Positions 36,753 through 46,527 of a stretch of 64,000 bases of DNA are shown piece by piece. A program made the position numbers and the translations under genes. Source of the DNA: Escherichia phage LorandFenyves_Bas91; the sequence record PQ850614.1. One strand, written 5' to 3'. Below the pieces are notes generated by a model. That model worked only from the letters and a program-made list of their open reading frames with translations. It was not told the origin of the DNA and did no database searches. Each line of letters opens with the position of its first letter. The first letter of the stretch is position 1.

Positions 36753-36956
36753 TTAGTAGAACGAACGAATTTCATCCCACACTTGTTCCTGTTCTTTCCT
36801 ATAAAAAGAAAGTTGGGTCTTGAACATCTCCACTGATGATTCAAAGTTTTTGGTTTGTGCAGCTTCAACGAAACGTTCATGTCGGTTGATTTTGCACCGT
36901 AGCATTAAATACTTGGCTTCAAGTCTCCGAAGAGCCTGCCTTTTCTCAAGATTCAC
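36753..36956 (-). CDS. hypothetical protein
   Basis: 67-aa helical ORF. Confidence 0.35.
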   Translation of the reverse strand: MNLEKRQALRRLEAKYLMLRCKINRHERFVEAAQTKNFESSVEMFKTQLSFYRKEQEQVWDEIRSFY

Positions 36957-37365
36957 TTTTCAGATACTCTGACCAGTCGCCAGATTCAACCAGAACATCT
37001 TGTTCTTCGTCGATATGATAAATCCAAGCGATAACAGTTTCACCTGAGTCCATCTTAACAGCAATCTGAGTACGCTGATAGAAGCTATCTTCAGGGCTAC
37101 GTTTGTTGTAACCTTCCAGACGGTCATACGGACCTTCCAGACCTGCTTTGTCAGTAGCAAACACTTCTACACGAACAGGATTATTGTTATTGCTGTGTGC
37201 GAGAGAGATGCTCGGGAAGTAGGAACCACCGTAACGGAACAGATCAAAGTTGTCTTCAGTCCAACCTTCACCAATTGACTTAGCACCAGCTCGGTCATTA
37301 ACTAAATAGTTAGCTTGACCACGACGAAGAGAACCATAAGTTGCTACGTAAATTACTTCTGACAT
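36946..37365 (-). CDS. gamma-glutamyl cyclotransferase-like (GGCT/AIG2 fold)
   Basis: N-terminal YVATYGSLRRG, YDRLEGY and C-terminal AWIYH pattern typical of the fold. Confidence 0.65.
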   Translation of the reverse strand: MSEVIYVATYGSLRRGQANYLVNDRAGAKSIGEGWTEDNFDLFRYGGSYFPSISLAHSNNNNPVRVEVFATDKAGLEGPYDRLEGYNKRSPEDSFYQRTQIAVKMDSGETVIAWIYHIDEEQDVLVESGDWSEYLKSES

Positions 37366-37366
37366 T

Positions 37367-37576
37367 TTAAATACCTTTCCAGTCTTTCATGATGTTTTCA
37401 ATGTAAGCACACTGCTGATCAGTGGCTCCTGTTACAAACACTTCTAACCCCAACTGCTCACAGAAGGGATTAAGAATCAATATTCTGGTTTGCCCATACG
37501 AGTGATGCTCTCGGTAGATAACACACCCAGCATCCCATACAGAATCAATGGCTTTACTCAATCTTTCATGTTTCAT
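37367..37576 (-). CDS. hypothetical protein
   Basis: 69-aa ORF. Confidence 0.35.
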   Translation of the reverse strand: MKHERLSKAIDSVWDAGCVIYREHHSYGQTRILILNPFCEQLGLEVFVTGATDQQCAYIENIMKDWKGI

Positions 37577-37629
37577 AAAACCTCCAGTTTATCCGAACTA
37601 GCCTCCTCTTTCGAAGAGGCTAAAGCAGA

Positions 37630-37815
37630 TTACTCTGTAATAAAGATTTTGATTACACCGCAGATTGCTGCACTTTCAAATACTGCAACAGCTTCACTTC
37701 CCTGAAAGAAGGCCACTTTGCCATCAGAGAAGTTAAACATGTCAGCATCTAGGTCCATAGCTCGCATATCACCAGCGTCGTTAGTATCTTTAAACAGAAC
37801 TTTATACTTATTCAC
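37630..37815 (-). CDS. hypothetical protein
   Basis: 61-aa ORF. Confidence 0.3.
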   Translation of the reverse strand: MNKYKVLFKDTNDAGDMRAMDLDADMFNFSDGKVAFFQGSEAVAVFESAAICGVIKIFITE

Positions 37816-43540: not shown

Positions 43541-43549
43541 GATAACCTC

Positions 43550-44356
43550 TTATGCTACCTGAAGGAGTTTGATCTGCTGGTCAGCTTCTTTAACGTTGTT
43601 CCCGTTAATGATTTCATGAAGCTTCTCAATCGGAAGGCGAGAGTGCAATGCCATCAGAGTGGACATATCACACTGCTGAACAACCTTGTCAACCTGATCG
43701 TAAACAAACTTACGGTTTTCACGATCACTAATCCAGAAGTTAGACAGAGAACGGTATTCAATACCATAGTCTTTATAACGGATTGCAGATGCTTTACCGT
43801 AGAGTTCTTTACGGCGAGTATCTTTGTCCATAATTACTGCTGGGAGAGACAGGAAGTAGTCACACAGCACACCCAGCATCATCTGAGTTTGCAGAGTGAT
43901 ATCCAAAGCACCAACTACGCCAAGATGTACGTGACCACCGGCAGTACGAAGTCCCTTATTCTGAGAAGTCGGGGATGGGTTTTTCTGACCAGTGAAGGCG
44001 TTGAAATCAGGAGTGCACCCGAAGATGAACGCTGATTCATTAAAGGTCTTCATCTCTTCTTCAGTGAAGATGTGAGAGCTAACACCCGGAGCTGTTTCCA
44101 TGTCCAGTTTGTTCAGGACATTATTGGTGAGATCAATACCACGTTGCATGTTATCGTTAAACGCTTCAAAACCGCTCTGTGGGTCAATATCAAACTCAGC
44201 CAGTACGTTGTCCTCTTGGAGACGAACATCCTTAGCCAGAGCGATCTTATCGTCCTTAGAGCAGCCTAATAAACCGGCTACAGAAGTGATGATACCATTG
44301 CTAGTACGAACAAACATTTCAGGGTCAGAGCCGATAAGGAATTTGCGCTTAGTCAT
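43550..44356 (-). CDS. second putative amide ligase (COOH-NH2 ligase-like)
   Basis: N-terminal FLIGSDPEMFV and RTAGGHVHLG resemble the ligase motifs of the neighbouring gene; assignment from memory. Confidence 0.4.
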   Translation of the reverse strand: MTKRKFLIGSDPEMFVRTSNGIITSVAGLLGCSKDDKIALAKDVRLQEDNVLAEFDIDPQSGFEAFNDNMQRGIDLTNNVLNKLDMETAPGVSSHIFTEEEMKTFNESAFIFGCTPDFNAFTGQKNPSPTSQNKGLRTAGGHVHLGVVGALDITLQTQMMLGVLCDYFLSLPAVIMDKDTRRKELYGKASAIRYKDYGIEYRSLSNFWISDRENRKFVYDQVDKVVQQCDMSTLMALHSRLPIEKLHEIINGNNVKEADQQIKLLQVA

Positions 44357-45320
44357 TATAATACTCCACTAGTTCAGAAAAGAGAGATGAGATTGTGTTA
44401 CCAACTTCTTCAAGAGTAAGACCGGAATCTGCTCCAGTTCTTTGAATCAGTCGGGCTGTAAAGTTTTGTACTGTAATGTTTCCCAACTTGTCGTCTATTG
44501 CTTCACGTTTGTGACCATAACAGTTGGACCAGAGTCTTAACCACTCTGACATTGTTTCATACTCGTCCGGGTCTTGATCTTTAGCACGAGCAAATCTTCG
44601 TAAGGCATCTTGGTTATGGTTACGAACATAACCATTCTCGTTGTCGCCAACACCGAAGGGGTTTTGAACCCATACTTGCTTCGTGTATTCATCAGAGTCT
44701 ACAACCAAAGGAAGGAATGCTGCTGCTGACATATTGTTGTTAATAACAATAGAGGTGCTCTCGCTACTCCCATTGGCTCTTCCTCGTTGAGACCATCCAC
44801 CGAAGAAGTCACGACCCAACCCAGCTAACACTAGAGCGATGCCGATGCGTTTACGCTTCAGCCACTCTTCCCTGTCTTCAATTCCTTCTGCTAGGAAATC
44901 CATTCCACGATATTGCCCTTCCAGAATACTACGAAAGAGCATAAGTCCTGTGAAGATCTGATCTGCTGGATGCTCACGAAGGTTGACAGCAACACTATTC
45001 GCTGAAGTGATCGTAAATACGTCACGATAGCAAGACATGGAGTTCATAATGTCTGCTGTTTCAACCAAGTTCTTTTCAATATCAGATGCAACATGACCGT
45101 GAAAAGAGTGAGTCCAGTAATTCAACATCTCCAGTTGCAAGTTGATATCACGGTTGAAGCGACGATAACGCCCTTCTTCCGAGATAACTTCACCATTAAT
45201 GTCATTTACACACTGGCCTTGCATGTAGTTGTGGATACCGAAGCACCCACGACCTAAGAACTTCTGTTCCCCTAAATCCTGTTGAAGATTAAGAGGTACG
45301 ATCGTTGTGGAGATTGACAT
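44349..45320 (-). CDS. hypothetical protein (amide-ligase cluster)
   Basis: 323-aa ORF. Confidence 0.45.
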   Translation of the reverse strand: MSISTTIVPLNLQQDLGEQKFLGRGCFGIHNYMQGQCVNDINGEVISEEGRYRRFNRDINLQLEMLNYWTHSFHGHVASDIEKNLVETADIMNSMSCYRDVFTITSANSVAVNLREHPADQIFTGLMLFRSILEGQYRGMDFLAEGIEDREEWLKRKRIGIALVLAGLGRDFFGGWSQRGRANGSSESTSIVINNNMSAAAFLPLVVDSDEYTKQVWVQNPFGVGDNENGYVRNHNQDALRRFARAKDQDPDEYETMSEWLRLWSNCYGHKREAIDDKLGNITVQNFTARLIQRTGADSGLTLEEVGNTISSLFSELVEYYND

Positions 45321-45330
45321 AACTAACCTT

Positions 45331-46527
45331 TTATTTTCCTAAAAATAATCCGCTCATAATACCATCCCACTCAGAGGACGGAATCACTGAATACTCCGAA
45401 CTTTGGTCCAGAGTTCCGCTACTGAATCGCTGAACAATATTATAAATATTGAACATATCTTTAGTCTCAGCGCGATAAGCGTAGACTAATCTGTCAGCTG
45501 TTCTTTCATCTTTAGATACCCGACGAGCAAAGGTAACCAGAAGGTTGTCACCTTTGAGTATTTCTGACTCATCTTTTACTAGATCAGGGTGCATAACCGG
45601 CAAGAACATTGAGTTGTTCACTCGTAACTCTGCTGTTTCATCATTCTCATAATGAATCCATTTAAAATCTTCATCACGAAAGTGACCGCATCCATCTCTG
45701 TATGACTGTTGACGCCAAGGCACTTGAAATGCTTCAGCGTATTTATCAGCCATGCCAACCGTAAATAGTGACGCTGGGAAAATACAAGCATCCCAATCGT
45801 TACCAACCAGAGTTGCTTTCTTTTCGCTCAAGAGGTTAGTGTAAGTGCTAACCATTCGTGAGTAAACATAAGCCTGAAGGATTGTCCAGCCTTCAACCAA
45901 CCATTTATGGAGGAAGGTTTCAACTTGACTCTCTTCATCTTCACAATAGAAGGTTCGGTCTAACATCAAATAGAACAGACAACGATCAGCAGGGATATTC
46001 TCAGTTGCTACCCCCATAAAACCTTTATCGTGCCAGCGTAAACAGGAGGGACGATCTTTGTCCACAAATGCTTCCATAGCTTCCAGTACAGCACGAGGTG
46101 TGGTTCGGTGTTCAGGGTTTTTGTCGTTCCAACGTTCGATGTTATTTTTAGGAGGTGTGTCTTCATCTTCATATGAACACCAACTCAAAGCTTCAGCTAC
46201 GTGCTTTTCATCACGCCAACGTCTAAAGCCTAACATCTTCATATGAGTTCCAGAGTTCCAGATATGCTTAATACTGCTCATATCCATCTCTCGACTTAAT
46301 AAGAACTCTTCCCCATCAGCACTACGAACGTTAGCATCTTCATGCCACACTCGAACGTGCATGTTCCATCCATGAGTTGCCTCATACATGTTAGGGTCGA
46401 AGTAGTCATCATCTTCGTCGTCTTCATCAACGCCACCATTATAGTTGCGAAGCTGAAGGAACCCATAACAAGGAGGGTTGACCGTTAAAACATTACCTTC
46501 AGTATCTTCTAATGTTACTGGAAACAT
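45331..46527 (-). CDS. hypothetical protein (amide-ligase cluster)
   Basis: 398-aa ORF with acidic insert. Confidence 0.45.
   Translation of the reverse strand: MFPVTLEDTEGNVLTVNPPCYGFLQLRNYNGGVDEDDEDDDYFDPNMYEATHGWNMHVRVWHEDANVRSADGEEFLLSREMDMSSIKHIWNSGTHMKMLGFRRWRDEKHVAEALSWCSYEDEDTPPKNNIERWNDKNPEHRTTPRAVLEAMEAFVDKDRPSCLRWHDKGFMGVATENIPADRCLFYLMLDRTFYCEDEESQVETFLHKWLVEGWTILQAYVYSRMVSTYTNLLSEKKATLVGNDWDACIFPASLFTVGMADKYAEAFQVPWRQQSYRDGCGHFRDEDFKWIHYENDETAELRVNNSMFLPVMHPDLVKDESEILKGDNLLVTFARRVSKDERTADRLVYAYRAETKDMFNIYNIVQRFSSGTLDQSSEYSVIPSSEWDGIMSGLFLGK

Follow-up and report, generated by a model that had tools for sequence, protein, structure and literature searches.

A phiEco32-type amidoligase module in a Kuravirus genome and the glutamate-amide chemistry that it may carry out

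What might a bacteriophage build, and on what, with a block of genes that appears to be given over to making and breaking amide bonds? The question is raised by positions 36946-46527 of a 64,000-nucleotide (nt) stretch of Escherichia phage LorandFenyves_Bas91 (PQ850614.1), the whole of which is called the window here. A sequence-only reading had placed eight large open reading frames (ORFs) in this region, five of them as named enzymes, and described them as a toolkit for making or trimming gamma-glutamyl or peptide-like amide bonds. The ORF listing bears out the eight large ORFs, their single orientation (minus strand) and their tight packing, and the cluster does take up about 15% of the window (9582/64000). 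Each of the five enzyme folds was recovered in profile searches, and together the folds support the idea of such a toolkit. We consider it an evenly balanced proposition that the genes form a co-transcribed, pre-late block encoding an ATP-dependent pathway, which builds and then trims a glutamate-containing amide adduct on an acceptor in the infected cell. The likeliest acceptor is a molecule that takes part in host interaction, be it a peptide, protein or envelope precursor, and not DNA.

At the DNA level, the region is 98.7% identical to Escherichia phage vB_EcoP-CHD5UKE1, 98.3% identical to SU10 and 97.0% identical, over 98% of its length, to phiEco32, whose annotation is collinear and has the same gene order. 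From these identities to known phiEco32-like coliphages, the window is a Kuravirus (Gordonclarkvirinae) genome, and the cluster is the type example of the phiEco32-type amidoligase module, not merely a similar cluster. All of its genes lie on the minus strand and adjoin the primase/helicase gene, which sits downstream. Intergenic gaps run from -20 to +11 nt, except for 79 nt before the glutamine amidotransferase (GATase) gene and 53 nt before a 69-amino-acid (aa) ORF. The abbreviations below are GS for glutamine synthetase, GCS for gamma-glutamylcysteine synthetase and Ntn for N-terminal nucleophile. From upstream to downstream, followed by the two flanking genes, the features are:

45331-46527, minus: u398, a 398-aa "PADR-family" protein, phage-specific and the fastest-evolving gene of the cluster
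44349-45320, minus: u323, a 323-aa protein, probable divergent paralogue of u398 (common motif, alignment)
43550-44356, minus: COOH-NH2 ligase, phiEco32-like type 2, a GCS2/GS-fold carboxylate-amine ligase (Pfam PF14395, PHROG 3815)
42923-43540, minus: u205, a 205-aa core accessory protein with SH3/Tudor-like beta-barrels and a basic-loop motif, P.RQ.[KR]G
41823-42926, minus: Amidoligase_2, a GS-fold ligase (Pfam PF12224)
39713-41743, minus: class-II (Ntn) glutamine amidotransferase-like protein of 676 aa with an ATT start (Pfam GATase_6)
39477-39710, minus: 77-aa small protein, kept directly after the GATase gene in several lineages and equivalent to LUZ24 gp20
39272-39496, minus: 74-aa small protein, in Kuravirus-like loci only
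38067-39269, minus: RimK-family ATP-grasp ligase (orthologue profile against the PDB, local NCBIfam matches, PHROG matches)
37367-38060, minus: Kuravirus-specific small ORFs, three in number (82, 61 and 69 aa), separating the ATP-grasp gene from GGACT
36946-37365, minus: GGACT, an AIG2-like gamma-glutamylamine cyclotransferase (Pfam PF06094, PHROG 2520)
34936-36726, minus: primase/helicase, context outside the module and its conserved downstream neighbour in most lineages
46539-46901, minus: 120-aa protein (PHROG 11370) of uncertain module membership, its gene coming first after a terminator-like hairpin

Two of the five enzymes belong to the GS/GCS-fold ligases. The COOH-NH2 ligase, 99.6% identical to the phiEco32 protein, matches PF14395 with an E-value of 2.3e-8 (34.0 bits against a cut-off of 25) and PHROG 3815 at 3e-118, while Amidoligase_2 matches PF12224 at 4.5e-8 (33.7 bits against a cut-off of 22). 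The motifs DPE, Q.D....E, H.H and E.R of the former are invariant across seven lineages; in the latter G.E.E, H.H and E.R are invariant. The E.E, H.H and E.R patterns, invariant in both families, are the conserved metal- and ATP-binding Glu, His and Arg motifs. Searches of longer Amidoligase_2 orthologues found no extra domains.

The third ligase is recognized through its orthologues. As a single sequence, the ATP-grasp protein gives weak Pfam matches below the cut-off (RimK 1e-2, Dala_Dala_lig_C 5.6e-3), and its RimK scores fall under the curated cut-offs of both databases (15.9 against 21 bits in Pfam; 31.6 against 143 for rimK_fam in NCBIfam, where its local matches are MptN and rimK_fam). 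A profile of 14 phage orthologues, by contrast with the single sequence, matches RimK and alpha-L-glutamate ligases in the PDB over ~210 residues with E-values of 5e-12 to 2e-11, 7qyr, 4iwx and 5zct among them (5e-12 to 1.5e-11); the RimK match stands at 1e-11 against 2e-4 for D-Ala-D-Ala ligase (Ddl). The Mg-ATP ligands D229, E241 and N243 are invariant. A catalytic domain (residues ~1-255) is followed by an acidic linker and a C-terminal domain of ~80 aa (PHROG 20552), and no extra domains were found in longer orthologues. On these comparisons the protein is classed as RimK-like and not as a RimK orthologue. Its nearest profile relatives, RimK, LysX/ArgX and cyanophycin synthetase, are all enzymes that lengthen a peptide or protein at a carboxylate.

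The GATase_6 match (E 1.1e-14) is confined to the N-terminal ~200 of 676 aa. The start codon of the gene is an ATT at 41743. AGGTGGA stands ahead of it and TGT-GGC-ATC, the opening of Cys-Gly-Ile-Val, behind it, and because of this start the ORF listing gives only a truncated frame, 39713-41404; the RefSeq annotation of SU10 has the full span from the ATT. Cys-Gly-Ile-Val after the start is the obligatory N-terminus of an Ntn amidotransferase. The ATT together with 21 nt upstream (41741-41743, to 41770) is identical in six Kuravirus loci, and related lineages read ATG-TGT; the conserved ATT suggests deliberately low or regulated translation of the GATase. The 79-nt gap ahead of the gene holds a 9-codon mini-ORF (MKGFTLQVD) and two small hairpins, which fold no better than shuffled sequence (z = -1.3). 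Cys1, R86, N111, G112 and D129 are the equivalents of E. coli GlmS Cys1, Arg73, Asn98, Gly99 and Asp123, and these catalytic and binding residues are invariant in an alignment of seven phage lineages with E. coli GlmS. The Ntn domain should therefore bind L-glutamine or a gamma-glutamyl compound with a free N-terminus. Beside the GlmS-like character of this domain, the NCBIfam search gave a weak local similarity to EgtC (2.5e-4). The Cys-rich tail that had been noticed earlier is real and contains three Cys4 clusters (residues 440-467, 487-515 and 641-671); longer GATase orthologues were found to carry no extra domains. In Cellulophaga phage phi14:2, the annotated GATase (g040; 7202-7294 of the locus analyzed) has 31 residues ahead of the catalytic Cys, with AGT as the preceding codon. 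Either the start is mis-annotated there, or removal of a propeptide is needed, as in some PurF enzymes.

The fifth enzyme, GGACT, matches PF06094 with an E-value of 3.4e-17 (63.6 bits against a cut-off of 22.8) and PHROG 2520 at 1.6e-44. It carries YGSL at residues 10-13 and LEG at 83-85, the latter with a candidate catalytic Glu. In the GGCT fold these two motifs serve in substrate binding and as the site of the candidate catalytic Glu, respectively.

Are these enzymes a functional unit, or a chance collection? IMG/VR was scanned with the ligase alignment, which gave 434 contigs encoding the marker ligase, of which 79 loci were fetched; the ORFs of 86 loci from ~37 lineages were then clustered into families. 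The order is nearly invariant: Peptidase_C26 (C26) or a PADR-family gene, COOH-NH2 ligase, u205, Amidoligase_2, GATase, ATP-grasp and, where present, GGACT, then the replication genes. Amidoligase_2 occurs in all 86 loci, GATase in 84, ATP-grasp in 78 and primase/helicase in 50. LUZ24 gp14-gp25 is collinear with the window from the 398-aa gene through the polymerase exonuclease subunit, the cluster itself being gp14-gp22, and Proteus phage 3H10_20 and Vibrio phage Vp_R1 keep the order as well. A looser version of it is seen in Citrobacter CVT22, Sinorhizobium phiM6 and phi14:2, which is a crAss-like phage. The same families in the same order in 86 loci and ~37 lineages argue against chance juxtaposition. 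Separate acquisition of unrelated housekeeping homologues, which the earlier reading had named as a finding that would refute it, came out negative, since the genes are co-oriented and syntenic across distant phages; the kept order, the deep divergence from cellular families and the phage-only members exclude it. HNH homing endonuclease genes are found inside the module, between Amidoligase_2 and GATase in UFV-P2 (ORF24; PMC3890496), between GATase and the ligase in phiM6 (8546-8989 of that locus) and also in YF01, so that the module is evidently a frequent HNH landing site.

Two features of this conservation bear on the chemistry. Amidoligase_2 and GATase are adjacent in 84 of the 86 loci, with GATase directly after, and this adjacency suggests a two-component amidotransferase; it is by inference only that Amidoligase_2 is proposed as the partner of GATase. 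The second is an alternation of hydrolases. GGACT is present in 47 of the 86 loci and Peptidase_C26 (Pfam 9.7e-20) in 29, and when the loci are grouped into 37 lineages at 50% Amidoligase_2 identity, GGACT occurs alone in 13 and C26 alone in 19, while two lineages carry both and three carry neither. GGACT and Peptidase_C26 have unrelated folds and both cleave gamma-glutamyl amides. The alternation looks like non-orthologous displacement, and it follows that removal of a gamma-glutamyl group would be an obligatory step.

The module thus contains three active-looking carboxylate-amine ligases, two of GS/GCS fold and one RimK-type ATP-grasp enzyme, for which a pathway can be proposed. A GS/GCS-fold ligase would first join the gamma-carboxyl of glutamate to an amine. 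Amidoligase_2 and GATase, as a two-part amidotransferase, would convert an ATP-activated carboxylate to a carboxamide; alternatively, the Ntn domain may cleave a gamma-glutamyl amide in the manner of EgtC. The RimK-like enzyme would then attach glutamate in alpha linkage, or some other amino acid, to a terminal carboxylate. Finally, GGACT, or Peptidase_C26 elsewhere, would remove a gamma-glutamyl group having a free alpha-amine and so release the amine. The u205 barrel protein and the fast-evolving u323/u398 pair may serve as scaffold or specificity subunits. The established precedents for a GS-like ligase combined with a gamma-glutamyl hydrolase or cyclotransferase are PuuA/PuuD, IpuC/IpuF, EgtA/EgtC and BtrJ/BtrG, and in these Puu, Ipu, Egt and butirosin pathways glutamate is a transient handle or protecting group.

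Several points weigh against this pathway. Profile searches of PDB sequences returned no solved GS, GCS2 or PafA relative of either GS-fold ligase at E<=1, and residues ~200-676 of GATase, which would be expected to define the acceptor, have no relative in Pfam, NCBIfam or the PDB. The order and substrates given for the three ligases are guesses. A Privateervirus-like lineage has a cluster with neither a recognizable GGACT nor C26, and few evolutionary events may explain the swap between the two. A nucleic-acid target would also agree with the conserved position beside replication genes and with the restriction resistance reported for Gordonclarkvirinae.

What do the remaining genes contribute? 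The sequence-only reading had set the 205-, 323- and 398-aa proteins apart as unknowns. They indeed gave no match in sequence searches of Pfam, NCBIfam, PADLOC and the PDB; what did not hold is their standing as unknowns, for they are conserved members of the module and not passengers. A u205-like protein is found in at least 65 of the 86 loci, always between the two GS-fold ligases. Its profile, run against 1.84 billion representatives, reached 64 clusters only, nearly all stand-alone, and the longer members of these clusters showed no Pfam domain.

The structure model of u398 is confident and has no fold match in the PDB. An alignment of u398 and u323 reveals a shared motif, PAD[RK]..[FL]..LM..R, which also occurs in the 310-aa protein encoded upstream of the ligase in marine phages; profile comparison (hhalign) links the three weakly to one another or to positional analogues, and both members of the gene pair in GAP52 and in LAh_8 match the u398 model. 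We hold with moderate confidence, on motif and profile comparison, that u398, u323 and the marine protein would make up one fast-evolving phage-only family. Between Kuravirus-like genera, identity is 94-95% for the primase/helicase, 59-80% for the five enzymes, 48-53% for u323 and 42-46% for u398.

Among the small ORFs, the 82-aa ORF is the best conserved of the three Kuravirus-specific ones. The 77-aa protein has tblastn matches in Proteus and Vibrio phages, is also found in LUZ24-like phages and shows the pattern R[KR].P[MF][TS]...D.[LI]R...[VI]P.P..I. By eye it resembles a ribbon-helix-helix protein and may be a small regulator or a subunit. The small ORFs were ruled out as Pup- or LysW-like carrier tags, being lineage-specific or without a conserved C-terminus, and the "KGI" C-termini common to two of them find their best explanation in the Shine-Dalgarno sequence of the gene that follows.

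How the block is transcribed was approached through promoter elements. Perfect matches to the element of the phiEco32 gp36 sigma factor, TAATGTATA, lie on the minus strand at 21160-21168, 27705-27713 and 59046-59054 and on the plus strand at 11329 and 21232. On the coding (minus) strand within the cluster, the consensus has no match, and one-mismatch counts in the window are at chance level; the cluster is therefore probably read from further upstream. A scan for sigma-70 promoters gave fewer sites than expected by chance. A terminator-like hairpin with a T-rich tail (GACTCTTTTCGGAGAGTC CTTTTTT) lies at 47100-47075 on the minus strand, in the 380-nt gap upstream of the 120-aa gene, and may mark the upstream boundary of the transcription unit of the cluster. 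The 120-aa gene is limited to Kuravirus-like loci, where it is always directly upstream of the 398-aa gene.

On what acceptor might the proposed pathway work? A protein or peptide target, an envelope precursor and a small metabolite are not told apart by the present evidence, and each has to be weighed. The reading that survives best, at something like one chance in several, is that a host or phage protein is glutamylated or peptide-tagged in a RimK- or pupylation-like manner, with u205 and the PADR proteins recognizing the target and GGACT, C26 and the Ntn hydrolase acting as erasers or editors. The RimK-like ATP-grasp enzyme speaks for it, as does the arms-race speed at which the PADR proteins evolve, and it is well established that PafA and Dop of the Pup system are likewise a pair of GCS-fold paralogues. 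The locus is less accommodating: none of its small ORFs was found to encode a tag protein ending in a conserved Gln or Glu, no such tag is found in the locus at all, and the u205 C-terminus is not conserved either. Moreover, GGACT and the Ntn domain need a free glutamyl alpha-amino group, which fits adducts of free glutamate better than protein-embedded residues.

Modification of the envelope, the function predicted in 2009, is somewhat less probable and on balance unlikely. It holds that peptidoglycan precursor peptides or another part of the envelope are altered, for example by adding, amidating or trimming gamma-glutamyl-linked residues, so that superinfection is blocked or lysis is tuned. 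This is the standing interpretation in the cited literature, and it agrees with the local similarity of the ATP-grasp enzyme to D-Ala-D-Ala ligase and with the GlmS-like N-terminal domain of GATase. Stem peptides are well known to hold a gamma-glutamyl bond and to be amidated by the glutaminase-ligase MurT/GatD, and the hosts that could be assigned with confidence are all bacteria with peptidoglycan. The ATP-grasp profile is, however, clearly nearer RimK than Ddl, the cluster proteins have no recognized Mur-ligase or envelope-related domain, and the conserved linkage is to replication genes and not to lysis genes. Apparent occurrences in archaeal viruses are too uncertain and were not used against the cell-wall hypothesis.

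A bolder and still more doubtful proposal starts from restriction. Gordonclarkvirinae are reported to resist the EcoRV, EcoKI and EcoP1 restriction-modification (RM) systems even though the sites are not avoided (PMC11990801). The module could be the missing determinant of their broad resistance to restriction and other defences, its ligases glutamylating or amidating targets chosen by the PADR pair; jointly with this, and at the same low probability, those targets could be proteins of host defence or DNA handling, or else a component bound to phage DNA as it enters or replicates. If true, hundreds of phage lineages would have a counter-defence of a new enzymatic class. The SU10 annotation also names a macro-domain (Appr-1-p processing) protein and a 63-aa "anti-restriction nuclease" (34011-34451 and 44444-44635 of the SU10 record), and either could bear on defence evasion independently of the module.

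Direct hypermodification of DNA is improbable. By this account an amino-acid-derived group is placed on phage DNA or on a deoxynucleoside triphosphate precursor, which would explain the restriction resistance. The module does lie in or near replication and nucleotide-metabolism genes in Kuravirus, LUZ24-like phages, Zobellviridae and phiM6, and between primase and uracil-DNA glycosylase genes in the crAss-like Cellulophaga phage. Gordonclarkvirinae are remarkably RM-resistant without a known modification pathway (BASEL-2, PMC11990801), and the window has 31 EcoRV, 7 EcoKI and 90 EcoP1 sites, at or above Markov expectation. Yet CCWGG occurs only twice in positions 1-64000 against ~74-93 expected, and GATC 144 times against ~297. 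Of 64 six-base palindromes, 13 are absent from the window (CTGCAG, 0 against 11.7 expected; GAGCTC, 0 against 12.8; GGATCC, 0), and the median ratio of observed to expected is 0.83 for palindromes and 1.00 for other 6-mers. Because such strong restriction-site avoidance is typical of DNA exposed to restriction, blanket DNA modification is disfavoured. No cluster protein has a Pfam match to hydroxymethylase, 5-HMUDK, aGPT-Pplase, DpdA or glycosylase-like proteins, and none of these is named in the SU10 annotation, by whose names alone the ORFs outside the cluster were judged; what it names is an ordinary thymidylate synthase and a deoxynucleoside monophosphate kinase. The module proteins also have no recognizable nucleic-acid-binding or base-flipping fold.

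Just downstream of the replication genes, at 32479-34440 on the minus strand, lie genes for a dCTP deaminase (TIGR02274, E 5e-31) and a ~457-aa nucleotidyltransferase. The latter has a class-II CCA-adding-enzyme domain according to the SU10 annotation and is only poorly conserved, at 33-43% identity over partial length, between Kuravirus-like genera. The BASEL authors suspect these two genes of a role in DNA modification.

The last reading, a re-routing of host glutamine, glutamate, glutathione or polyamine pools in favour of phage replication (for instance by gamma-glutamylation of polyamines), has very little probability: each family has a well-established metabolic counterpart (PuuA/PuuD, GshA/YbdK, GGACT/YtfP) and several genome papers count them among auxiliary metabolic genes, but the phage-only, non-metabolic members (u205 and PADR) and the rapid divergence are unlike host-near auxiliary metabolic genes, and close bacterial homologues did not surface, the u205 profile with its 64 clusters being a case in point.

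How much of this was known? The cluster itself is already known as a computational prediction, which is said to have been made first by Iyer, Abhiman, Burroughs and Aravind in 2009, and phiEco32 has given its name to PF14395. Papers that describe genomes of LUZ24-like, OM43, Poseidoniales-associated and Clostridium phages cite that 2009 work and paraphrase its prediction as either a cell-wall modification that prevents superinfection or the synthesis of a secondary metabolite. That later papers cite only this prediction agrees with the statement of the sequence-only reading that such clusters have been predicted computationally and that their product is not established. Full-text searches of the literature turned up no functional experiment on the cluster except for a directed evolution of a Bruynoghevirus (PMC11450229), where missense changes arose in the amidoligase and GATase genes of both evolved lines. 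These mutations and the fast evolution of the cluster point to a role in host interaction, in keeping with the acceptor preferred here for the glutamate-amide pathway.

What the present analysis adds is that u205, the PADR pair and the 77-aa protein are conserved members too, where genome annotations name the five enzymes only, that the gene order is kept across ~37 lineages, and that GGACT alternates with Peptidase_C26. The module is a widespread "known unknown" that takes up ~10 kb of a ~77-kb genome and reaches from coliphages to marine and crAss-like phages. It is still without an assigned product 17 years after the prediction, and solving it would reveal new phage biochemistry. Toward this, the analysis supplies a fuller inventory of parts (seven or eight conserved families), a constraint on the chemistry in the implied cleavage of a gamma-glutamyl amide, and candidate specificity subunits. 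Since phages of both Kuravirus and Bruynoghevirus serve in therapy, an answer could also account for differences between them in host range or in escape from defences.

How, then, does the module compare with known systems? With the phiEco32/LUZ24-type cluster (PF14395, PF12224) it is identical, and the window shows no essential difference. To the RimK, LysX-LysW and CofF-MptN ligases it is tied by the ATP-grasp profile (~1e-11) and the invariant D/E/N Mg-ATP ligands, although the window protein has an acidic linker and an extra C-terminal domain, with no S6- or LysW-like substrate encoded nearby. The Puu, Ipu, Egt and butirosin pathways, compared here from established knowledge, share the combination of a GS/GCS-fold or ATP-grasp ligase, which makes the gamma-glutamyl amide, with a remover of C26, Ntn class-II or GGCT fold; in contrast to them, the window has three ligases and phage-specific accessories, none of their intervening tailoring enzymes is there, and the likeness to EgtC is weak and local. 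In pupylation (PafA/Dop/Pup), as is established, a single locus likewise holds a pair of GCS-fold paralogues, and the chemistry is at the gamma position of Gln/Glu; here, by contrast, there is neither a Pup-like tag nor a proteasome or Mpa partner, and sequence similarity to solved PafA or Dop is not detectable. MurT/GatD and LtsA/AsnB-type systems, finally, use a glutaminase and an ATP-dependent ligase to amidate a carboxylate. MurT/GatD does so with a Mur-ligase fold and a class I glutaminase, and this is the role proposed for Amidoligase_2 and GATase, with a GS fold and a class II glutaminase.

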